Below, piece by piece: positions 6,804 to 54,259 of a stretch of 64,000 bases of DNA; position 1 is the stretch's first letter, and every line of letters starts with the position of its first letter. A model generated the notes under the pieces. That model searched no databases, had not been told where the DNA came from, and worked only from the letters and a program-made list of their open reading frames with translations. The stretch is taken from positions 2,218 to 66,217 of the forward strand of contig CALXCH010000001.1 in assembly GCA_944386735.1 (NCBI GenBank), written 5' to 3'. The stretch is from an uncultured Clostridia bacterium (GTDB lineage: Bacteria; Bacillota; Clostridia; TANB77; CAG-508). Position numbers and translations under genes: made by a program.

Positions 6804-6883
6804 AACAGGTGCAGCTTATCAACAGTTGAAGTGGAAAACTGCCTAGCCAATCAGCAGTACAACTGCTGATTGATACACCTGTT
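6804..6883. other. Candidate structured RNA / cis-regulatory element: 8-bp outer stem AACAGGTG/CACCTGTT enclosing a 10-bp hairpin CAATCAGCAG-TACAA-CTGCTGATTG
   Basis: Nested perfect inverted repeats read directly from the sequence. Lies in the leader of the minus-strand small gene and upstream of the dapD promoter. Confidence 0.35.
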
Positions 6884-6993
6884 GTTAAAGTGAGAAATAA
6901 GCGACAAAAAGAATATATCAAGAATTAATTTAAAAGCCAATATTTATTTTATAAGTAAGGAAAATGTTAAAATAGAATATATAAGTTTGAAAA

Positions 6994-7022
6994 TTGACGG
7001 AAAAATATATAAATGATATAAT
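6994..7022 (+). promoter_or_regulatory. Sigma-A-type promoter for the dapD operon: TTGACG-17 nt-TATAAT
   Basis: Near-consensus -35 and -10 with a 17-nt spacer, about 40 nt upstream of the dapD RBS. Confidence 0.6.
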
Positions 7023-7062
7023 GCTTGAAAAGTTAATAAAAAGTTTTTTAGGAGTTGATGGT

Positions 7063-7854
7063 ATGGAAAAATACTTGAAATTATTAGAAAAAGAAGATTT
7101 AACAAGAGAAGAATTTATGCCAGTATGGGAAGAATTTAAAAGTGATTTAAATAAAGGAAATGTAAGAGTAGCAGAAAAAATAGATGGAGAATGGAAAGTA
7201 AATAAATGGGTAAAACAATTTATATTGTTAGGCTTTAAATATGGAGAAGTAATAAAATTTGAAGATGGAACTATAGATAAAGATACAATGGGAGAAAGAA
7301 AAGTAAATTTAGATGAAAAAGTAAGAGTAGTTTCTCCTACAGTATCAATAAGAGATGGTGTGTATATCGGAAAAGGAGTCACTTTTATGCCACCTTGTTA
7401 TACAAATATAGGAGCATATATAGATGAAGGTTCAATGGTAGACTCTTTAGCATTAGTAGGGTCTTGTGCTCAAATAGGAAAAAATGTACATTTAGGTGCA
7501 GGAGTAATAATAGGTGGAGTATTAGAGCCAGTAGGTGCATATCCTGTAATTATAGAAGATAATGTATTTGTTGGAGCAGGTTCACAAATAACAGAAGGAA
7601 CAATAGTAAAAGAAGGGGCTGTAATAGGAGCAGGTGTAACAATTACAGGAAGTACACCAGTTTATGATAATGTAAATGGAAACATAATTACTCCAAATGA
7701 AAATGGTCAAATAGTAATACCAAAAGATGCAGTTGTAATACCAGGAACAAGAGATGTTAAATCTAATATAGAAGGAGTAACATTATCTAAATCAGTTCCA
7801 ATGATTATAAAATATGGAAGTAAGGTAGTTTTAGAAGATTTATTAAGACCATAA
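7063..7854 (+). CDS. dapD: 2,3,4,5-tetrahydropyridine-2,6-dicarboxylate N-acyltransferase (DapD-type hexapeptide transferase)
   Basis: Strong resemblance to E. coli DapD (RVAEKIDGEW, NIGAYIDEGSMVDS, GSCAQIGKNVHLGAGV). AGGAG RBS 8 nt before ATG 7063; the ORF-track start at 6994 overlaps the promoter. Confidence 0.85.
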   Translation: MEKYLKLLEKEDLTREEFMPVWEEFKSDLNKGNVRVAEKIDGEWKVNKWVKQFILLGFKYGEVIKFEDGTIDKDTMGERKVNLDEKVRVVSPTVSIRDGVYIGKGVTFMPPCYTNIGAYIDEGSMVDSLALVGSCAQIGKNVHLGAGVIIGGVLEPVGAYPVIIEDNVFVGAGSQITEGTIVKEGAVIGAGVTITGSTPVYDNVNGNIITPNENGQIVIPKDAVVIPGTRDVKSNIEGVTLSKSVPMIIKYGSKVVLEDLLRP

Positions 7855-7906
7855 TATTTTATCGCATAAGGCTTCTTATGCGATATTTTGAAAGGAAGAG
7901 AAGTAA

Positions 7907-9110
7907 ATGGCAAATGTAAATGAAAATTTTTTGAACTTAAAGAATGATTATTTGTTTTCTACTATAACAGAAAAAAGAAATGAATTTGAGAAAAATAATC
8001 CAGATAAAAAAGTCATAAGTTTAGGAATAGGAGATGTATCATTACCACTTGCACCAGTTGTAATAGAAGCAATGAAAAAGTCAGTTGATGAAATGTCTAA
8101 AAAAGAAACTTTTAGAGGCTATGGAATAGTTCAAGGATATGACTTTTTAATAGATAGAATTTTAGATGTTGAATATAAGAAAAGAGGAGTTTCTTTAGAA
8201 AAAGATGAAGTGTTTATTGCAGCAGGAAGTAAAGGAGATTTAGCAGGAATAGCAGAGTTGTTATCTGAAGATAATATTGTAGCTTTAATGGATCCAGTAT
8301 ATCCAGCATATAGAGATGCAAATATAATGCTTGGAAGAAATGATATAGTTTATTTAAAAGCTACTGAAGAAAATAATTTTACACCTGAACTTCCAAAAGA
8401 ACATGTTGATATAATATACCTTTGTTCTCCAAATAATCCAACTGGAACAGTTTTAACTAGAAAGCAATTAGAGGAATGGATTAAATATGCTAAAGAAAAT
8501 AAAGCAATAATATTTTACGATTCTGTTTATGAAATATTTATAGAAGATGAAGATATACCTCATAGTATCTATGAGATAGAAGGCGCAAAAGAAGTTGCAG
8601 TAGAATTTAGATCTTATTCAAAACTTGCAGGCTTTACAGGTGTTAGATGTTCTTTTGCGGTTGTACCTAAAGAACTAAAAGTATACACAAAAAGTGGAAA
8701 AGAGGTGGATTTAAATAGTTTGTGGAGAAGAAGACAAAGTACTAAATTTGGTGCAGCGTCATATATTACTCAAAGAGCAGCAGAAGCAGTGTATACAGAA
8801 GATGGTCAAAAACAAATAAGAGAAAATATAAAATATTATAAAGAAAATGCAAAATACATAAAAGAAGAATTAGAAAAAGTTGGATTTATTGTATATGGAG
8901 GAGAAAGTTCACCATATATTTGGCTTAAAACACCAAATGCAATGAAATCTTGGGATTTCTTTGATAAATTATTAAATGAAGCAGCAGTAGTCCGGAACAC
9001 CAGGAGTAGGATTTGGAGAATGTGGAGAGGGATTTTTTAGATTAACAGCATTTTCTAGTAAAGAAGATACTAAAGAAGCTGTGGATAGGATAATTAAATT
9101 ATTTAAGTAA
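7907..9110 (+). pseudogene. Class I/II (PLP) aminotransferase of the diaminopimelate pathway (DapC/PatA-like), interrupted by a 1-nt frameshift near 8991
   Basis: Frame A reads ...AAVV then nonsense to 9040. The +1 frame from 8991 reads [39 protein letters not shown] to TAA at 9108-9110, the canonical aminotransferase C-terminus. Confidence 0.7.
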
Positions 9111-12341: not shown

Positions 12342-12821
12342 ATGGAATATAAAATAAGAGAAATAGAAAAGAAGGATAATAAGCAAGTAGAAAATGTAAT
12401 TAGAACATGTTTAATAGAATTTGGAGGAAATCATGAGGGTCTAGCTTGGAGTGACCCAGATTTAGGAAGATTTTCTGAAGTGTATAACAAAACTGGATTT
12501 AAATATTGGGTAGTAGAAGATGAAGAAGGAAAAGTTGTAGGTGGATGTGGAATAGGTAAACTAGAAGGAACAGATGATGTTTGTGAACTTCAAAAAATGT
12601 ACTGCTTAGAAAGTGCAAGAGGAACAGGAATATCACATAAATTAATGGACTTAGCTTTGTCTTATGCTAAAAAATATTATAAGAGATGTTATATAGAAAC
12701 ATTAAGTAATATGGTAGCTGCAAATAAATTTTATAAAAAATATGGATTTAAAAGTTTAGATGAACCTTTAGTGAAGACTGAGCATTATGCTTGTGATGTT
12801 TGGTATGTAAAAGATTTATAA
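12342..12821 (+). CDS. GNAT family N-acetyltransferase
   Basis: 159 aa with acetyl-CoA binding-like core (RGTGISHKLM). Confidence 0.6.
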   Translation: MEYKIREIEKKDNKQVENVIRTCLIEFGGNHEGLAWSDPDLGRFSEVYNKTGFKYWVVEDEEGKVVGGCGIGKLEGTDDVCELQKMYCLESARGTGISHKLMDLALSYAKKYYKRCYIETLSNMVAANKFYKKYGFKSLDEPLVKTEHYACDVWYVKDL

Positions 12822-12835
12822 AGGAGAGAAGGCGT

Positions 12836-13708
12836 TTGAAAAGATTAGTTGTATTTGGAAAAAATAAAAAAGCTACAGCAACAGTATATTTTGTATTAAG
12901 ATTTTTGGTAATAGTAACATTAGTTTTACAATTAATTAAAGGGAATTATGAAAATGTGTTTATGTGTGTTTTAACACTTATTTTATTTTTAATACCAATT
13001 ATAATAGATAGAAAACTAAATATAAAATTACCTAATACTTTAGAAATAATAATATTTCTATTTATATTTTCAGCAGAAATATTAGGAGAAGTTCAGAATT
13101 TTTATGGAATATTTAAATATTGGGACTCAATCTTGCATACTATAAATGGATTTTTATGTGCAGCAATAGGATTTTCAATGATAGATATATTAAATAGAAG
13201 CACTAAATTTCATAAGATGCTAACCCCAGTTTTTGTTGCTTTAGTTGCATTTTGTTTTTCTATGACTGTAGGAGTTCTTTGGGAATTTATAGAATATGGT
13301 ATGGATAAAACTTTTAATACTGATATGCAAAAAGATAGAATAGTAACTACTGTTTCATCAACTTTACTAAATGAAGAAGGGAAGAACCAAGAAGAGGTTA
13401 TAAAAGATATTGAAAAAACAATAGTTTATGGAACTTTAAATGGAAAAAAGTCTGCGATTACAATTGATGGTGGATATTTAGATATTGGAATAAATGATAC
13501 AATGAAAGACTTAATTGTAAACTTTATAGGTGCTGTAGTTTTTTCAATAATAGGTTTATTGTATATTAAAAACAGAGATGAATATAGATTTGCAGAAGAA
13601 TTTATGCCAGCAGTAAAAACAGAAGAAGAAATAGAAGAAACAAAGAAAGAATTAGAAAGATTAGAAAAAGTTTTAGAGGATAAGAAAAAGAGAAAAAATA
13701 GAAAATAG
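12836..13708 (+). CDS. Integral membrane protein with a C-terminal charged coiled-coil tail, unknown function
   Basis: AAGGAGAG RBS then TTG 12836. Multiple TM segments and a KKRKNRK tail. Confidence 0.4.
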   Translation: MKRLVVFGKNKKATATVYFVLRFLVIVTLVLQLIKGNYENVFMCVLTLILFLIPIIIDRKLNIKLPNTLEIIIFLFIFSAEILGEVQNFYGIFKYWDSILHTINGFLCAAIGFSMIDILNRSTKFHKMLTPVFVALVAFCFSMTVGVLWEFIEYGMDKTFNTDMQKDRIVTTVSSTLLNEEGKNQEEVIKDIEKTIVYGTLNGKKSAITIDGGYLDIGINDTMKDLIVNFIGAVVFSIIGLLYIKNRDEYRFAEEFMPAVKTEEEIEETKKELERLEKVLEDKKKRKNRK

Positions 13709-13722
13709 AAATATCTTCATAA

Positions 13723-13751
13723 TTTGAAAAATAGAGGTATTTTTGGTATAA
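13723..13751 (+). promoter_or_regulatory. Strong sigma-A promoter TTGAAA-17 nt-(TGg)TATAAT
   Basis: Perfect spacing and an extended -10. Drives the high-GC orphan gene. Confidence 0.65.
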
Positions 13752-13797
13752 TATATATATGCAGAGAAAGGCTCTGCTGTAGTAGAAAGGATTAACA

Positions 13798-14319
13798 ATG
13801 TCGCAGTCACTAGAAAAGTATCTTGATATCTGCGTTCAGACGGCAGGTAATCCAGATTATGATGTACAATATGCTCTCGGAAAGAGACATGCTAAACTTG
13901 CACAGAAGTTGGCAAAGATGACTGATGATGCGCTTGGAGATTGGTTGGTATCAGAGGATGATACCAGCAGGGCGGCTGAGGATGCTGTTCGCATAGTTGG
14001 TCAAGAAAGAATCGAAGCAGCACTTATTAACATGTATATCACGGATGTGGAGAGACTCCTTCTTGATGCATCAAAAACTTTTCTTGAGGAAACTCAAGGA
14101 GAAGTAAACATCGGGATGCCTGAAGAGTTGCAGGGCATTGAGGACGACGAGAAACTGGTTAATAAGCTTTGTAGTCTTTACAACAACGATACTGCAAAGG
14201 CATTGCTGGTCCTCAGTAGCGAAGGCGAGCTTCTCGGTCTTTTGAGAAAGCAAATGCTAAGTTGCTACGAGGTCTCCATGATTCTTGTAGACTTCTACGA
14301 GGAGCTAATGGAAGACTAG
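13798..14319 (+). CDS. Orphan acidic 173-aa protein of unknown function, compositionally foreign (about 43% GC)
   Basis: GC content and codon usage (CTC, GCG, CGC, ACG) differ from the flanking genes. Has its own promoter and a GC-rich terminator. Confidence 0.6.
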   Translation: MSQSLEKYLDICVQTAGNPDYDVQYALGKRHAKLAQKLAKMTDDALGDWLVSEDDTSRAAEDAVRIVGQERIEAALINMYITDVERLLLDASKTFLEETQGEVNIGMPEELQGIEDDEKLVNKLCSLYNNDTAKALLVLSSEGELLGLLRKQMLSCYEVSMILVDFYEELMED

Positions 14320-14357
14320 AATATTCCCCCTAAGGGTTTGCTCTTAGGGGGATATTC
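14319..14357 (+). terminator. Strong terminator GAATATTCCCCCTAAG...CTTAGGGGGATATTC
   Basis: 16-bp GC-rich inverted repeat directly after the stop codon. Confidence 0.75.
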
Positions 14358-14462
14358 TATTTATAATTTATAGGATAAAAAATATTAAAATATTATTTTC
14401 GGTGGTAAATACAAAAAAACTGTGATATAATAAAAAAGATTTTTTATTAGGAGGAAAAACTT

Positions 14463-17198
14463 TTGGATAAATTTGTATTAGTAGATGGAAATAGTATAAT
14501 GAATAGAGCATTTTATGGAATAATGGGAAGTAAAATGCTAACAACAAAAGATGGAAAATATACAAATGCGGTGTATGGATTTTTAGCAATAATGTTTAAA
14601 TTGTTAGAAGACGTAAAGCCGCAATATATGGCAGTAGCATTTGATTTAAAAGCACCTACAGCAAGGCACAAAATGTATGAAGGATATAAAGCAAATAGAA
14701 AAGGAATGCCAGATGAACTTGCAGAACAAATGCCTATGATAAAAGAAATATTACGTGCAATGAATATAGATATAGTAGAAATGGAAGGGTATGAAGCAGA
14801 TGATGTATTAGGAACCCTATCTTGTTATGGAGAAAAACAAGGATTAGATGTAATTATTCTTTCAGGAGATAGAGATACATTTCAGCTTGCAACAGATAAA
14901 GTAACAATAAGAATACCACATACAAAAGCAGGAAAAAGTGAAACAGATGAATATGATGCAAAAAAAATAAAAGAAAAATATGGATTAAAGCCAAAACAAT
15001 TAATAGAAGTAAAAGGACTTCAAGGAGATACATCAGATAATATACCAGGAGTACCAGGAGTAGGAGAAAAAACAGCACTAAAACTGGTACAAGAATATGG
15101 CTCAATAGATAATTTGTATAAAAAAATAGAAGCAGGAGAAGATGATTTAAAAGGAAAACAAAGAGAAAAAATAGTAGAAAATAAAGACTTGGCATATTTA
15201 TCTAAAACATTAGGAACAATAAATGTAAATGTACCAATAAAAGATGATTTAAGCGATTTTAAGGTGGAAGAATGGGATAAAGAAAAAGTATTAGAATTGT
15301 TTAAGGAATTAAATTTTAACCGTTATATAGAACGTTTTAATTTAAAAGGAGAAGGTACTACAGGAGAAAAGGAAAATAACAGTAATAAGGAATTATATAA
15401 AAGAGTAGAAAAATCAAAAGAAGAAATAATTGATTTTATGAGACAATCAAAAGAAATGATATTTTACTTTGTAACAGAAAAAGATGATGATAAAGAAAAA
15501 ATAATAAAAGAAAAAATAAAAGGAATATCTATTTATAATAAAGAAAAAAATGAAGTTTATTATATAGAATTAAATAATGATGCGGATTGTTTGAAAGAAG
15601 TATTGGAAGATTCTGAAATAAGAAAAGTAGGAATAGATTTAAGTAGAATATATATATTATTAAAACAGGTTGGAATAAACTTAAAAGGAATAGATTATGA
15701 TATATCAATAGCATCATACATATTAAATCCAACAGATAATAAACTAAAAATAGAAGATTTAATAGTAAAATTTTTAGAATTAGATTTAGAGGAAATCTTA
15801 GGAGAAGAAGAAAAAAAAGATACTAAAGCAAAACAGATAAATCTATTTGAAAGCTCAGAAAATGATAGTGAAGAAAAAAGAAAATTAGAGGAAAGAAAAA
15901 AAGAAGAAGCTTGCTTGTATGTATATAGCATAGGAAAAATAAAAGAGATAACACTAAAGAAATTAGAAGAAGTAAATTGCTTAGAATTATTTAATAAAAT
16001 AGATATGCCTACAGTAGAAGTATTATCAAATATGCAATGGAATGGTATGTATGTAGATAAAGAAGAATTAGAAGCATTTGGAAAGGAACTAACACAAAAG
16101 TTAGATACAATAACAAAAATAATTTATGAAATGGCAGGAGAAGAATTTAATATAAATTCAACAAAACAATTAGGAGAAATCTTATTTGAAAAAATGAAAT
16201 TACCTGTTATTAAGAAGACAAAAAGTGGATATTCAACAGATGTAGATGTATTAGAAAAACTAAAAAAAGAAGATCCAATAATAGAACAAATATTAGAATA
16301 TAGACAACTTATGAAATTAAACTCAACATATGTAGAAGGATTAAAACCATATATAAATCCCAAAACAAATAGAATACATTCATTTTTCCATCAAACAATA
16401 ACAGCAACAGGAAGAATAAGCTCAACAGAGCCAAATCTACAAAATATACCAACAAGATTTGAACTTGGAAAAAGAGTAAGAAGAGTATTTAAGCCAGAAA
16501 ATGGATATGTCTATGTAGATGCAGATTATTCACAAATAGAATTAAGAGTATTAGCATCAATATCAGAAGATAAACATATGATAGAAGCATTTAAAGAAGG
16601 GCAAGATATTCATAAACAAGCAGCATCAAAGGTATTTAAAACCCCAATGGATGAAGTAACAAAAGAACAAAGAAGTAATGCAAAAGCAGTAAACTTTGGA
16701 ATTGTTTATGGGATAAGTGATTTCGGTCTAGGAGAACAATTAGGAATAGGAAGAAAACAAGCAAAAAAATATATAGATGAGTATTTAAGTGAATATTCTG
16801 GAATAAAGAAATTTATGGATAATATAAAAGAAGAAGCAAAAGAAAAAGGCTATGTAGAAACATTGTTCCATAGAAGAAGATATATACCAGAATTGAAATC
16901 AAACAATTATATGGTAAGACAATTTGGAGCAAGAGCAGCAATGAATACACCAATACAAGGAACAGCAGCAGATATAATGAAAATTGCTATGATAAAAGTA
17001 TTAAAAGAAATTGAAAAAAGGGGATTAAAATCAAAAATAGTATTACAAGTACACGATGAAATGATGATAGAAGCACCAATAGAAGAAAAAGAAGAAATAA
17101 AGGAAATAGTAAAAAATAGTATGGAGACAGCAACTAAGTTAAAAGTACCACTAATTGCTGAAATTTCAGAAGCAGACAACTGGTATGATTGCAAATAA
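14463..17198 (+). CDS. polA: DNA polymerase I
   Basis: 911 aa containing 5'-3' exonuclease, 3'-5' exonuclease-like and polymerase (family A) motifs such as DYSQIELR and QVHDE. AGGAGG RBS with TTG start. Confidence 0.95.
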   Translation: MDKFVLVDGNSIMNRAFYGIMGSKMLTTKDGKYTNAVYGFLAIMFKLLEDVKPQYMAVAFDLKAPTARHKMYEGYKANRKGMPDELAEQMPMIKEILRAMNIDIVEMEGYEADDVLGTLSCYGEKQGLDVIILSGDRDTFQLATDKVTIRIPHTKAGKSETDEYDAKKIKEKYGLKPKQLIEVKGLQGDTSDNIPGVPGVGEKTALKLVQEYGSIDNLYKKIEAGEDDLKGKQREKIVENKDLAYLSKTLGTINVNVPIKDDLSDFKVEEWDKEKVLELFKELNFNRYIERFNLKGEGTTGEKENNSNKELYKRVEKSKEEIIDFMRQSKEMIFYFVTEKDDDKEKIIKEKIKGISIYNKEKNEVYYIELNNDADCLKEVLEDSEIRKVGIDLSRIYILLKQVGINLKGIDYDISIASYILNPTDNKLKIEDLIVKFLELDLEEILGEEEKKDTKAKQINLFESSENDSEEKRKLEERKKEEACLYVYSIGKIKEITLKKLEEVNCLELFNKIDMPTVEVLSNMQWNGMYVDKEELEAFGKELTQKLDTITKIIYEMAGEEFNINSTKQLGEILFEKMKLPVIKKTKSGYSTDVDVLEKLKKEDPIIEQILEYRQLMKLNSTYVEGLKPYINPKTNRIHSFFHQTITATGRISSTEPNLQNIPTRFELGKRVRRVFKPENGYVYVDADYSQIELRVLASISEDKHMIEAFKEGQDIHKQAASKVFKTPMDEVTKEQRSNAKAVNFGIVYGISDFGLGEQLGIGRKQAKKYIDEYLSEYSGIKKFMDNIKEEAKEKGYVETLFHRRRYIPELKSNNYMVRQFGARAAMNTPIQGTAADIMKIAMIKVLKEIEKRGLKSKIVLQVHDEMMIEAPIEEKEEIKEIVKNSMETATKLKVPLIAEISEADNWYDCK

Positions 17199-21693: not shown

Positions 21694-21990
21694 ATGGCTA
21701 AGACATTTGAAATTACGAAGAAACTTGTAGAAAACAGGATTTATGAACTTCAGCAAGAAAAAGAGAAAAATGAAAAAGCTGAGGAAGAGATTCTAAATAG
21801 TATGGATGAGCTAAAGCATATGAAAAGTCTTAGCGAAGCCAACTATGATGAGCTTGTTTGGCTTGCAGCAGACCTAGCAGAAGTTTATTGCAAGCTAAAA
21901 AATGTTTCAGCAGAATTGGAGAAGCTACTTGCTGAATATAAATGGCTAGGCGAAGCTGAACAAGAAACTTTTAATAGCAATTGTAAATAG
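21694..21990 (+). CDS. Small acidic coiled-coil protein (98 aa), unknown function
   Basis: AGGGAAAGGA RBS and a terminator hairpin GGCACCTCGAA...TTCGAGATGCC downstream. Confidence 0.4.
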   Translation: MAKTFEITKKLVENRIYELQQEKEKNEKAEEEILNSMDELKHMKSLSEANYDELVWLAADLAEVYCKLKNVSAELEKLLAEYKWLGEAEQETFNSNCK

Positions 21991-43821: not shown

Positions 43822-44179
43822 ATGGGGATGAAATGGTTTCGACATAATACTAGAAGTATAGATTGCAAGTAGTGGATGGTCGCTTTGGCCACTTAAAAAA
43901 AGCGAAAGTAAATATAAACGCTGATAACGAAGAATTAGCATTAGCTGCCTAAGTTGCGGCTACGCTTTACTAAAAAGTCCCACCTTTTTAGATAAAGTGT
44001 TATAACAGTGGGAAACGAAGCTACTTTTGCTTTTAAAGTAGTAGGTATTTTAAAAAGCTATATTTTAATAAAACCTGTTTGTTGGTGTTATTAAAATGAA
44101 TAAAATAAACAAACTAAACTTGTAGATATCTATGTGGAAGGTATTGTGGACAGGAGTTCGACTCTCCTCATCTCCACCA
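43822..44179 (+). ncRNA. ssrA: tmRNA (SsrA), tag reading frame GCT GAT AAC GAA GAA TTA GCA TTA GCT GCC TAA (ADNEELALAA)
   Basis: 5' GGGGATG and 3' GGACAGGAGTTCGACTCTCCTCATCTCCACCA tRNA-like ends. Internal tag ORF at 43926-43958. Terminator hairpin follows. Confidence 0.9.
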
Positions 44180-44383: not shown

Positions 44384-45139
44384 ATGGCTACTATTGTTCA
44401 CACTGACGAAGACTTTGCAAAAACTTATGTTTTTCGAACTCAAGATGAGCACGTTTTGTATATTAGCGATTTTAAGGAAGGAGTTGCTACAGTAGAATTA
44501 ACAGATGACCATACACTTGATTCTTTGGCAAGAGTAATTTTCGGCTGTTTTTCAAAAAAATCAAATTTTGCTGAAGCGATTCTTAAAGCTTATCATTGTG
44601 ATGAAAATGTGAGATTTAAGGGATTTGCAATTAATATTAACGGAAAATTGGTAAATATTACTAAGGAAGACTGTGACATTGATGAAATTATCGAATTGAT
44701 AAAGCAAGCTGAGAAGGAAACTCAAGAAGAAACAATGGCAAATTCATTTGGACAGCTTGTGGAATTTTTTACAGGAATTCCAAAAGAAGTAAGTTATGTG
44801 AGAGCAATTGTTAAAATTGAGTTTAAAGATGAAGCATCTGAAAAATCATGGAATGAATGGTTTGAAAGTGCTGAGAGCGAAGAACAAAATGAAATTGTTA
44901 GCTTTGGAGATTTGCTAGCTAGGTATTCACAAAGTGCAATGAAAGATGGATATCCTTTTGAAACTGCTGTAACTAGGTCATATCTGAAACTTTCTGCAAT
45001 GGATGAAAATCTAGATGATGCAATGAAACAATATGCAATTGATAAGCTGATTGAATGTTGGAAATATGGTAAAGAACTGAAGGAATGGAATGATGGTAGA
45101 ACCAAGTCTGACCTGGAAAATCTGATTGATGAAATCTAG
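44384..45139 (+). CDS. Acidic 251-aa protein, uncharacterized family, paralog 1 of 3 in tandem
   Basis: Own promoter TTGAAA-17-TATAAT, RBS, and terminator CCTCCTTTAAAGGAGG. N-terminal VHTDEDF...GVATVE...GCFSKKSNF...AYHCDEN is shared with the paralogs. Confidence 0.6.
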   Translation: MATIVHTDEDFAKTYVFRTQDEHVLYISDFKEGVATVELTDDHTLDSLARVIFGCFSKKSNFAEAILKAYHCDENVRFKGFAININGKLVNITKEDCDIDEIIELIKQAEKETQEETMANSFGQLVEFFTGIPKEVSYVRAIVKIEFKDEASEKSWNEWFESAESEEQNEIVSFGDLLARYSQSAMKDGYPFETAVTRSYLKLSAMDENLDDAMKQYAIDKLIECWKYGKELKEWNDGRTKSDLENLIDEI

Positions 45140-45308
45140 TGGCTATACCGTAAAAGCTAAATAGCTTTTAGTAAAAAGAAAATAGTTTTCTTTACCTCCT
45201 TTAAAGGAGGTTTCTTTTTATTCTACATAACTATTTGAATTGTTATATAATTGTGGTATAATAAATGAGTATTAAAGTAATAGTTAGTATATAGAAAGGA
45301 AGAGTATT

Positions 45309-46064
45309 ATGATTACATTTGTACATACTGACGAGGAATTTGTGAAGATGTACAAGTTTCGGACACAGAACAATCATGTTGTGCTTGTAAAAGAATTTGA
45401 AAATGGAGTTGCAACAATTGAACCAACATGGGATTACAAAAATTTAGATGAGTTTATTGAAGTTATTTCAGGTTGCCTTAATGGAAAATCTAATTTTAAA
45501 AAAGAGCTTATGAAAGCCTATGGCCATGATGAAAATTCTGAACTTAAGGGAATTAATATTATCATATTAGGTATCAATGTGTTTATTTCGCCTGAAAAGA
45601 AGAACAAAGATGAAATTCAAGCTATTATTGATTCAAGTATGATAAAACATTTTGAAAGAAACTTACGAGAAGTAATCGATAGTTCATTCCATTGTCGGTA
45701 TTGTGATTATATAACTAATATTGTCTATAGTACGGAAATTGAATTTGTAAGTAAAGAGGCAGAAAGAAAGTGGAGAAAGAAGACTGATAAGTTAAGAGAA
45801 ACAGAAACAGGATTCTTTATAGTAGACTATGCAGACAACTTAGCTAAATATATTCAGTATCTTGTTGAGGATATGGATAAAAAGTTTCCTACAGTAATAG
45901 ATGAAGCAATGGAAGACATTGATTCATTGACGATGGCAGAAGGTGACACTATACTAGAAGCAATCTATTTGCTTGTTGATACTTGGAAATATGGAGATGA
46001 ACTTATAAAATGGAATAGAAAAGTAATCGATTTTCAAATGCAAAGTATCATAGATGACCTCTAA
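45309..46064 (+). CDS. Acidic 251-aa protein, paralog 2 of 3
   Basis: VHTDEEF...GVATIE...GCLNGKSNF...AYGHDEN, C-terminal WKYGDELIKWN. Own promoter and terminator CCTCTAGAAATAGAGG. Confidence 0.6.
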   Translation: MITFVHTDEEFVKMYKFRTQNNHVVLVKEFENGVATIEPTWDYKNLDEFIEVISGCLNGKSNFKKELMKAYGHDENSELKGINIIILGINVFISPEKKNKDEIQAIIDSSMIKHFERNLREVIDSSFHCRYCDYITNIVYSTEIEFVSKEAERKWRKKTDKLRETETGFFIVDYADNLAKYIQYLVEDMDKKFPTVIDEAMEDIDSLTMAEGDTILEAIYLLVDTWKYGDELIKWNRKVIDFQMQSIIDDL

Positions 46065-46259
46065 CTTTGCTAACTAATAACAAATGGTTAAATAACCATT
46101 AAGCTAAAAAGAAAAAATTTCTTTTCCTCTAGAAATAGAGGTTTCTTTTTTTATTTTTTATTTTTGACAAAAATTAAGTATTAATTGACTTTTATGTAAA
46201 TGGAATATATAATAACAATATGTAATTGTAAAATCATTTTACTTAGAGAAAGGAATATC

Positions 46260-47027
46260 ATGAAAACCATCATCAAAAAAGTAAATAAAATTTTTTCTTT
46301 TAAAGACGAGAAAGGATATGAAGTCCTTGTAGATGGATTTAAAGATGGATTTGCAACAATCCGGATTCCAATTACTGTTACTAGATATGAGGATAAAATC
46401 TCTGCTTGCATAGTAGACGGAAATAATCTTATTAGCTTTTTATCAGGCTGTTTTGGCAAAGAGTCTAATTTCGTAAAAATGCTGTTTGAAACATATGAAT
46501 GTGATTCAACTGCTGAATTTCTTGGATTTAAGTTAAAGGCAGGAGATATGTCATGCACAGTAACTAGGGAAAATTCAGCTTTTTACAGCATTAAAGAAAT
46601 CATAGAAAATTTCCTTGGCATATATGCTGAAGCAGAAGCAGAAAAAATTAACAAGCGAACAGATGAGTATAATAAAGAAAGGGAAGATTTGGATAATCTT
46701 CTCGATAGTCTAGATATAGCTTTTAAGAGTGATCAAGCAGAAGATAAATATATAGAAGAAGCTGAAAGGTTAGATGAAAACTTCTTGGGATATGGACAAG
46801 ATTTTGTTGCACATGTTCAGTACCTTGTGGAACAAGAAGGCTACAATATTTCTGATGCTGTTAATGAGACCTATAGAAGGTTTGATTCAATCAGTTTCAA
46901 TATTGAAGAAGGATTAGCATCAATACAATTCATTTGTAGGTTCTGCCTCTATGGAGATGAGATTTATGAAAGTTATTTTAATATTTGGATGAAGATGTAT
47001 AACGATGAGCTAAATAACTATCTCTAA
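46260..47027 (+). CDS. Acidic 255-aa protein, paralog 3 of 3 (more diverged)
   Basis: GFATIRIP...SGCFGKESNF...TYECDSTAEFLGF, C-terminal LYGDEIYESYFNIW. Promoter TTGACT-17-TATAAT. Terminator CCCTCTAGAAATAGAGGG. Confidence 0.55.
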   Translation: MKTIIKKVNKIFSFKDEKGYEVLVDGFKDGFATIRIPITVTRYEDKISACIVDGNNLISFLSGCFGKESNFVKMLFETYECDSTAEFLGFKLKAGDMSCTVTRENSAFYSIKEIIENFLGIYAEAEAEKINKRTDEYNKEREDLDNLLDSLDIAFKSDQAEDKYIEEAERLDENFLGYGQDFVAHVQYLVEQEGYNISDAVNETYRRFDSISFNIEEGLASIQFICRFCLYGDEIYESYFNIWMKMYNDELNNYL

Positions 47028-53230: not shown

Positions 53231-53644
53231 ATGAAGAATGGTTACGACTACGCTGTCGAAATGATGAGGAAGTATCCTCATGATGAAGCGACAGACTTGG
53301 AAGAACGCTACTACGACTATGCAGGTGAAGTTTCAAGACTCCTTCGTGTTAAGAAGCTGACCGGAACGTATAGTGTAAACTCAGGTGCTAGGAAGACCTT
53401 CAGGCAAGAGTATGAGAAGCTCGTTGATAAGGCTATCTGCATGATTAATGGCTCAGCGGAGATTGTCTTCCAAGGTACTTATGGGCATGTTTTACCTAAC
53501 CCAGATGGTGCAATTCGCTTCACAGTTGATGTGAGCAATATCATCAAAAAGCTTCCTAAACTTCAAAAGGGTGAAAGCTATGTCTTTCCAACTCTTAAGG
53601 TAGACAAAAAGTGGGGACAGGTGAATTTCCAAGTAGGTAAGTGA
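53231..53644 (+). CDS. Small protein (137 aa), unknown family, high-GC (about 43%) copy of a duplicated gene
   Basis: AGGAGG RBS. C-terminal KKLPKLQKGESYVFPTLKV is shared with the paralog at 53909. The GC content is far above local background. Confidence 0.55.
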   Translation: MKNGYDYAVEMMRKYPHDEATDLEERYYDYAGEVSRLLRVKKLTGTYSVNSGARKTFRQEYEKLVDKAICMINGSAEIVFQGTYGHVLPNPDGAIRFTVDVSNIIKKLPKLQKGESYVFPTLKVDKKWGQVNFQVGK

Positions 53645-53908: not shown

Positions 53909-54259
53909 ATGAGTGGTTATGCAAATGATGTTGCAAATAGACTTTGGATTAGAAATGGAAGAAACAGAAAAGAAGTTCAAGCTAATGTATTAATTCAATT
54001 TAGAGATTGTTTAGATGATTTTATAGATGAAAATATGCATGAAATAAAAGTTAGGCCTGTTTGTGTTATTTTTCAGAATCCTAGAAAACCATATAAGAGG
54101 GAATTTAAAAGAAAAGGCGTGACTTATATTGAAAAAAGTTTGGATTCGGTAGTAAAAAAACTTCCTAAACTTAGTGAGGGAGAATACTACGACTTTCCTA
54201 GTCTTGAAATTATTTTGGAACGGAATGGAACGGGTTTTATCTATTTAAGATATGCATAA
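53909..54259 (+). CDS. Small protein (116 aa), native-GC paralog of the 53231 gene
   Basis: AAGGAGG RBS. C-terminal KKLPKLSEGEYYDFPSLEI. Terminator GCAGCTTAAGG...CCTTAAGTTGC downstream. Confidence 0.55.
   Translation: MSGYANDVANRLWIRNGRNRKEVQANVLIQFRDCLDDFIDENMHEIKVRPVCVIFQNPRKPYKREFKRKGVTYIEKSLDSVVKKLPKLSEGEYYDFPSLEIILERNGTGFIYLRYA

Follow-up and report, generated by a model that had tools for sequence, protein, structure and literature searches.

An old, lineage-restricted gene cassette of atypical composition in the slot beside polA of AT-rich gut Clostridia

A 64,000-nucleotide (nt) stretch of DNA from an uncultured Clostridia bacterium (contig CALXCH010000001.1 of assembly GCA_944386735.1), here called the window, carries between a gene for a DUF2238 membrane protein and polA a single gene, gene X, whose base composition departs sharply from that of its surroundings. 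We give an even chance to the reading that X is an old, lineage-restricted and self-contained expression cassette with a structured, stable mRNA and a non-enzymatic binding protein as its product. On this proposal a strong constitutive sigma-A promoter, a 5' hairpin, a strong Shine-Dalgarno (SD) sequence, a coding sequence (CDS) of 166-183 codons and a G+C-rich terminator would act as one unit, which would have occupied the slot between the DUF2238 gene and polA since before the sampled gut Clostridia species diverged, with few later losses. Divergent versions of X would have been shuffled by recombination at the cassette ends, and selection on the mRNA would have kept G and C, and kept out A, at synonymous sites. 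The message would be compact and probably long-lived, its two ends closed off by the 5' hairpin and the terminator hairpin, and the product would be a helical protein that binds a partner, for example as an inhibitor or adaptor. The parts of the cassette are as follows.

13680..14390, plus strand: hypervariable segment corresponding to the whole cassette, with conserved flanks on either side, delimited by sliding 100-nt identity.
13724..13752, plus strand: sigma-A type promoter TTGAAA-17-TGgTATAAT with an extended -10 element, matching 11 of 12 consensus positions plus the TG.
13761..13777, plus strand: 5'-terminal mRNA hairpin GCAGAG-AAAGG-CUCUGC, a 6-bp helix at or near +1.
13785..13791, plus strand: SD sequence GAAAGGA, 6 nt upstream of the ATG.
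13798..14319, plus strand: CDS of gene X, encoding a 173-amino-acid (aa), acidic orphan protein predicted to be all-helical.
14191..14212, plus strand: candidate internal anti-SD sequence ACUGCAAAGGCAUUGCUGGUCC, codons ~132-138, which include the rare codons GTC and CTC.
14320..14357, plus strand: intrinsic terminator hairpin GAAUAUUCCCCCUAAGGG-UUUG-CUCUUAGGGGGAUAUUC followed by a U-rich tail, found by a terminator scan and by minimum free energy (MFE) folding.

The original prediction, which was that X had been acquired recently as a single gene, started from its composition, and that description holds. X is 44% G+C against a background of ~28% and has no neighbours of like composition: its overall G+C content (GC) and its third-position G+C content (GC3) are both 0.443, compared with 0.25-0.29 and 0.11-0.16 in six neighbouring genes, which include nadD, nadE, a GNAT acetyltransferase gene, the DUF2238 gene and polA, and with a GC of 0.276 for the window. 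Just two of the ~57 long open reading frames (ORFs) in the window exceed a GC3 of 0.4, X and the ORF at 53231..53644. All four rare codons named in the prediction are used in X: CTC for 4 of 26 Leu residues (0% in the background), and GCG, CGC and ACG for 2 of 14, 1 of 6 and 2 of 7 residues of their respective amino acids. TTA, the codon for 66% of Leu residues in the background, encodes none of the 26 in X, where CTT accounts for 12, and AAG, GAG, ATC and GTC are used more often than in the background. Avoidance of A-ending codons is the main component of the bias, the third-position A content (A3) being 0.24 versus 0.54. The codon bias of highly expressed genes was ruled out as an explanation, as groES and groEL in the window (GC3 0.06-0.08) deviate in the opposite direction. 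In the product, Asp and Glu make up 35 of 173 residues, or 20.2%, slightly less than the ~23% first estimated, giving a net charge of -19 and an isoelectric point of 4.27. The predicted absence of mobile-element genes was also borne out: no integrase or transposase ORF lies within 5 kb on either side of X and no phage gene within 5 kb; the nearest tRNA is 28 kb away, and border direct repeats were not searched for.

Genome scans with the DUF2238 protein encoded next to X recovered species-level relatives. The syntenic block GNAT-DUF2238-slot-polA holds a homologue of X in at least nine species-level lineages. The homologues fall into versions that share 24-66% amino-acid identity overall. X1 is found in the window and in L006 (99% identical), and X2 in L001, L004 and L011 (60-66% amino-acid identity to X1). 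More distant are X3 in L007, L014 and L092 (176-183 aa, ~25-28% identity), X4 in L008 and L089 (166 aa, ~24-28%) and X6 in L095 (168 aa, ~27-29%). Version X7 comes from L094, and X5 (L087/L088, ~49 contigs) sits at another locus, flanked on one side by a phage-type anti-repressor gene and on the other by the 3' end of spoIVA. Three relatives have no intact X in the slot: L010 is rearranged there, L012 has unrelated low-GC genes, and L009 retains at 6851-7085 an X4-type pseudogene, of which ~40 nt at the 3' end, with the TDIMEN codons, survive together with an internal fragment. Absence of the gene from this site in close relatives, as recent acquisition implied, was thus not what we found: homologues are present, and the synonymous sites of the flanks are near saturation. 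The comparison of synteny supports the prediction in one respect, in that the contents of the slot vary between relatives, and goes against it in the other, in that most relatives have the gene. What stands is a stand-alone, compositionally aberrant transcription unit in a housekeeping neighbourhood.

Several features of the slot and its surroundings were noted in passing. The L012 replacement (7034-8403) comprises a 186-aa ORF that matches nothing in Pfam and a gene for a 248-aa protein that has an N-terminal hydrophobic segment and an Endonuclea_NS_2 domain (expectation value, E, 1.8e-26). Both genes have host-like GC, and by their sequences the pair could be a nuclease plus its inhibitor. 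At the second locus, L087 8584-16410, a 91-aa C-terminal spoIVA fragment, encoded on the minus strand, borders a series of phage-like genes comprising an S-adenosylmethionine-synthetase-like gene (phrog_1569), two HNH endonuclease genes and a DUF3560/primase-like gene, an arrangement that suggests an intervening element within a sporulation gene. AT-rich extra DNA lies 3' of X before polA in L011 (~7490-7769), L008 (7462-7900) and L092 (7915-8327); that of L008 contains a small ORF with a pilin-like N-terminus (GITLIALVITIV) and that of L011 a (CA)n run. The longest ORF of the DUF2238 gene starts at a TTG overlapping the end of the GNAT gene (window 12800-12838), and the likelier start is the equivalent of 12839 (MKRL...), as called in orthologues.

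The borders of the variable region are sharp. When the window was compared with L007, L001 and L089 in sliding 100-nt steps, identity was 0.83-0.97, mostly 0.90-0.97, up to ~13650, fell to 0.34-0.78 over ~13650-14380, and returned to 0.91-0.97 from ~14430, at the polA promoter. The variable segment coincides exactly with the cassette. Nor does the version of X follow the relatedness of the flanks. The flanks closest to those of the window belong to L007 (DUF2238 98%, polA 91%), yet L007 carries the distant X3, whose protein fell below the tblastn threshold with the window query and reaches ~25-28% identity on alignment, and X2, the version closest to X1, sits in genomes whose flanks are more distant than those of L007. 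Divergence between X1 and X2 is itself uneven. Over the first 120 codons synonymous sites are saturated (proportion of synonymous differences, pS, 0.74-0.87), and over the last 55 codons the synonymous divergence, dS, is 0.43-0.47, resembling the flanks (0.5-0.7). X1 and X2 are mosaic relative to each other, and the best-supported picture is that versions have been exchanged by recombination at the cassette borders: mosaic versions, borders at the cassette ends and a version that does not track its flanks together point to such shuffling.

Through this divergence the cassette travels with the gene. The near-consensus promoter described in the original prediction is present and is the top-scoring promoter site in the 2 kb scanned, and the predicted terminator is likewise the strongest of its kind there. 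All 11 aligned versions, including the one from the second locus, have the same -35 TTGAAA, TG and TATAAT. The SD core GAAAGG (alignment columns 66-71) is also invariant, 11 of 11, and is followed by A in nine and by G in two X4 versions. Promoter, hairpin and SD are common to all versions, X5 at its other locus and X7 on its short contig included, and a downstream hairpin follows the stop codon in every version with sequence past it, in most cases with a CTAAGG..CTTAG core. In the window the terminator stem (14325-14352) has 12 pairs, 7 of them G-C, by the scan and 17 pairs in the whole-transcript fold. These non-coding parts of the cassette stay AT-rich. X is probably highly expressed.

The 5' hairpin, whose position at ~+1 assumes a transcription start set by the location of the -10 element, is supported by covariation. 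Across the 11 versions 100% of the cells in the helix are paired, compared with 19-62% in slid controls, and two pairs show compensatory changes, UA<->CG in four sequences and AU<->GC in two. The hairpin is also present in the whole-transcript MFE fold. Its closing pair is G-U in 6 of 11 versions, which fits an RNA hairpin better than a DNA palindrome and makes a palindromic operator the less likely interpretation. The loop reads AAAGG, AAAUG, AAAUA, GAAGG or AAGGG, and UAAA in the five-pair hairpin of X7. CsrA-type control through GGA in the loop and SD was considered and dropped: no GGA is conserved in the loop, and some versions have none at all.

X is a real protein-coding gene under purifying selection. 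Its frame is open over 166-183 codons in every full-length genomic copy read, all indels among versions are multiples of 3, and the ratio of nonsynonymous to synonymous divergence, dN/dS, is 0.13-0.20 when the window copy is compared with the versions nearest to it and 0.20-0.55 among copies of the same version. Conservation at the protein level persists where the synonymous sites of X1 and X2 are saturated.

The family is small and anonymous. Searches of 5.8 billion proteins and 1.84 billion cluster representatives gave ~16 family clusters, none of them named or with a Pfam domain; several clusters were not looked up for context, and one short contig holds the cassette alone. All members with readable DNA come from uncultured gut Clostridia, on contigs with a low GC of 0.27-0.29, and Clostridium sp. 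CAG:273 is the closest record that bears a name. The protein matched no family in Pfam, NCBIfam, PHROG or PADLOC and has no sequence relative in the PDB, and no homologue was found in 50,697 INPHARED phage records, 72,556 PLSDB plasmids, IMG/VR or JGI metagenomes. The search by sequence and structure that the original prediction called for yielded a confident model and no match to a known family or fold. AlphaFold2 with 15 sequences gave nine helices with a mean predicted local distance difference test score (pLDDT) of 79.6 and a predicted template modelling score (pTM) of 0.72; an earlier prediction from 5 sequences was set aside as too poor (pLDDT 54). Foldseek with this model returned best E values of 0.66 in the PDB and 0.096 in BFVD, with template modelling (TM) scores of at most 0.32. 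X defines an uncharacterised family whose predicted fold has no match in the PDB or BFVD.

Invariant residues are mainly hydrophobic, with an (A/S)-(R/S/K)-M-T-D-x-x-L-G-x-W motif and R71 in addition, and none looks catalytic. Matches to T4_Rnl2_C in one member (E 6.6e-4) and to ThiD2 in three (E>=0.03) were below threshold and inconsistent across members and were rejected. The prediction had raised a DNA mimic, an immunity protein or a regulator as possible roles. The first was rejected: in a single member DMP19 (PF14300) scored 14.7 bits (E 0.048) where the cut-off is 25, a hit at chance level, and the family does not conserve its charge, the net charge ranging from -1 to -25; Foldseek gave no match in the PDB, and surface charge distribution was not computed. 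As to immunity, X matched no immunity family in Pfam or PADLOC, and it stands alone at all loci read, with no adjoining toxin gene or immunity array. X may still be an immunity protein or a regulator. The fast turnover of versions suggests a fast-evolving partner, for example a phage or toxin protein.

The composition of X appears to be a family trait held by selection. All family members have a GC3 of 0.23-0.55, compared with 0.08-0.17 in their own flanks, and an A3 of 0.21-0.33 versus 0.54 in the background, with third-position T (T3) at 0.24-0.42 versus 0.32. The flanks themselves are near compositional saturation: in a comparison of the window with L001, 35 of 37 fourfold G/C sites differ. 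Where one sequence of a pair has G or C at a third position, so does the other at 59-93% of sites in X versus 21-70% in the flanks. Under a two-state model of GC<->AT class change calibrated on the flanks, X shows too few class changes in 7 of 7 species pairs (p 1e-2 to 3e-5), and for neutral decay since the species split to suffice, X1 and X2 would have to start from an ancestral GC3 of 0.8-1.0. Between L001 and L004, dS in X (0.60) exceeds that of the flanks (0.42-0.49), yet class changes are few (p 3e-5) and substitutions stay within the base class. G/C does decay in the dead L009 copy; there the CCCC/GGGG of the terminator has become TTTC/TGGG (GC>AT).

Predicted folding of the message exceeds what its codons and amino acids require. 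In 7 of 7 versions the native CDS has a lower MFE than its synonymous-codon shuffles (z -1.2 to -5.0), and block-wise shuffles that keep local composition leave X the more stable in 8 of 8 (mean z -2.1); ten ordinary window genes taken as controls average z ~-0.3. The whole 597-nt transcript scores z -6.6 against dinucleotide shuffles. Such a message, with a hairpin at either end, would be expected to resist degradation.

Some of our results weigh against this interpretation of X. Acidity is not a family-wide property, given the spread of net charge, and no partner gene is linked to X; we infer the binding role, and any part in conflict, only from hypervariability and the absence of catalytic motifs. 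For some versions the folding excess is modest (z -0.6 to -1.9), and among the ordinary genes used as controls one had a z of -2.3. Within some versions dS in X is 0.05-0.20 compared with 0.18-0.40 in the flanks, a deficit that could reflect recent exchange between species and not constraint. The GC3 spread of 0.23-0.55 also fits differing ages since import from an unsampled source.

That source is the core of the alternative that survives best, though we consider it unlikely: recurrent import from an unsampled, GC-richer mobile pool, such as the phages of the group, with versions swapped in at the cassette ends and slowly ameliorating. The GC3 of the versions forms a gradient (0.23, 0.25, 0.32, 0.35-0.38, 0.44, 0.52-0.55), the variable segment has sharp borders and its version does not track flank similarity, the copy at the second locus adjoins a phage-type anti-repressor gene, and the window has other genes of raised GC3, including an ORF next to the transfer-messenger RNA (tmRNA) gene that encodes a Tad4 (Thoeris inhibitor) domain and a second GC-rich orphan with a low-GC tandem paralogue, as amelioration would give. 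However, the phage, plasmid, IMG/VR and JGI metagenome collections searched hold no homologue, and members with readable flanks all lie in low-GC chromosomal DNA behind the same AT-rich, host-type promoter and leader. The shortage of class changes between L001 and L004, at a dS above that of the flanks, also runs counter to amelioration, and import alone leaves the folding beyond synonymous shuffles unexplained.

A more elaborate proposal, which we judge improbable, is that the X message is deliberately long-lived and largely self-masked, its product being a fast-evolving conflict factor that exists in several divergent forms across species. Synonymous G/C and the rare codons would then be selected for a nuclease-resistant body and for a long-range anti-SD, GUCCUC or GUCCUU, that hides the SD and AUG from ~400 nt downstream (codons ~136-137), so that translation would occur just while the transcript is being made or once a trigger has acted, as might happen in dormant or germinating cells of a spore-former. 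When the whole transcript is folded by MFE, the candidate sequence at 14191-14212 pairs with the SD and AUG, and this sequence or its homologous GUCCUU, AUCCUU or GUUCUU site is the best partner of the SD/start region in 8 of 11 versions. The drop in predicted accessibility of that region relative to synonymous shuffles is not significant, and a similar trend is seen in control genes.

GC-biased gene conversion, in which frequent recombination in the slot leaves heteroduplex mismatches that are repaired toward G/C, would account for a GC enrichment restricted to the hypervariable segment, and there is evidence for recombination and mosaicism confined to the cassette. It is a long shot nonetheless, as it predicts neither an MFE below synonymous shuffles nor a specific avoidance of A with T3 kept, and the non-coding parts of the cassette are still AT-rich.

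G+C-rich islands in AT-rich genomes are typically RNA genes, and the folding of X (z -6.6 for the transcript, and beyond synonymous shuffles for the CDS) invites the idea that a structured non-coding RNA is the product, or a second job of the transcript, and the ORF incidental or secondary. This is very improbable in view of an ORF that stays intact over 166-183 codons at 24-66% identity with 3n indels and dN/dS <1, protein-level conservation where synonymous sites are saturated, and a confident protein model (pLDDT 79.6); Rfam 15 gave no match at E<=1 over 12500-15500, and none for the cassette at gathering thresholds in a scan of the window. Recent single-gene horizontal acquisition in the strain or species, with donor composition retained, is scarcely credible: it fits the 44% versus 28% GC and rare codons, the stand-alone unit and the lack of homologues outside a narrow group, and is contradicted by occupancy of the same slot in at least nine lineages with flank synonymous sites near saturation, the pseudogene remnant in L009, the decay arithmetic, borders with no mobility genes or tRNA (the nearest 28 kb away), and a promoter and leader common to all versions.

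Raised GC3 was also seen elsewhere in the window. Downstream of the tmRNA gene (43824-44179), at 44384-47027, lie three ORFs of 251-275 aa with a GC3 of 0.22-0.25. The first two are clearly paralogous, and the first has a Pfam match to the type I Thoeris inhibitor Tad4 (E 2e-8, 35 bits versus a cut-off of 25); by sequence and position these ORFs may form a phage-derived islet at a classic integration site. The ORF at 53231-53644 (137 aa, GC 0.43, GC3 0.45, A3 0.22) has promoter-like and terminator-like elements of its own and a tandem paralogue at 53909-54259 (116 aa) with a near-background GC3 of 0.17; neither has a Pfam match, and their folding z scores against synonymous shuffles are -1.7 and -1.6. 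A 98-aa ORF at 21694-21990 has a GC3 of 0.29, a folding z of -2.7 against synonymous shuffles and a single weak match, to TBCA_PH (E 9e-5, below cut-off).

Atypical composition is routinely taken as a sign of recent horizontal transfer, and X offers a concrete counter-example, a 44%-GC gene in a 28%-GC genome that is nevertheless old and syntenic. For extremely AT-rich bacteria it could provide a system in which to test how selection acts on synonymous sites and mRNA structure, and its version turnover, which resembles that of conflict genes, makes it a candidate for a new phage- or toxin-related function.

Known systems share parts of this description. Like DMP19, Ocr, ArdA and barstar-like proteins, X is small (166-183 aa), helical and stand-alone, and the window copy is strongly acidic (net charge -19, pI 4.3); it differs in showing no significant similarity to them in sequence or fold (TM <=0.32) and in a charge that is not conserved. 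Pherotype, immunity and surface-antigen loci hold very divergent alleles between conserved flanks, and so does the slot, with flanks 90-97% identical, a protein 24-66% identical, mosaic versions and a version independent of flank relatedness; those loci differ from X in that X has no linked toxin, receptor or kinase gene and its product would be a cytoplasmic helical protein. In Firmicutes, the ermC, aprE and cryIIIA STAB-SD leaders stabilise mRNAs through a 5'-terminal stem-loop. X similarly has a covarying hairpin at its very 5' end, the strong SD GAAAGGA and a strong terminator, and differs in that the coding body too has unusual G+C and excess structure and in that stabilisation is, for X, something we infer. 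Another parallel is with phage morons, reportedly described by Hendrix and colleagues as single extra genes with their own sigma-70-type promoter and intrinsic terminator, a composition unlike that of both neighbours, and presence or absence among related genomes. X has its own promoter and terminator, a composition unlike both neighbours and a variable presence. Unlike a moron, it lies outside any prophage, among housekeeping genes and with no phage homologue found, and different species have retained it in a single chromosomal slot for so long that its composition should have equilibrated.

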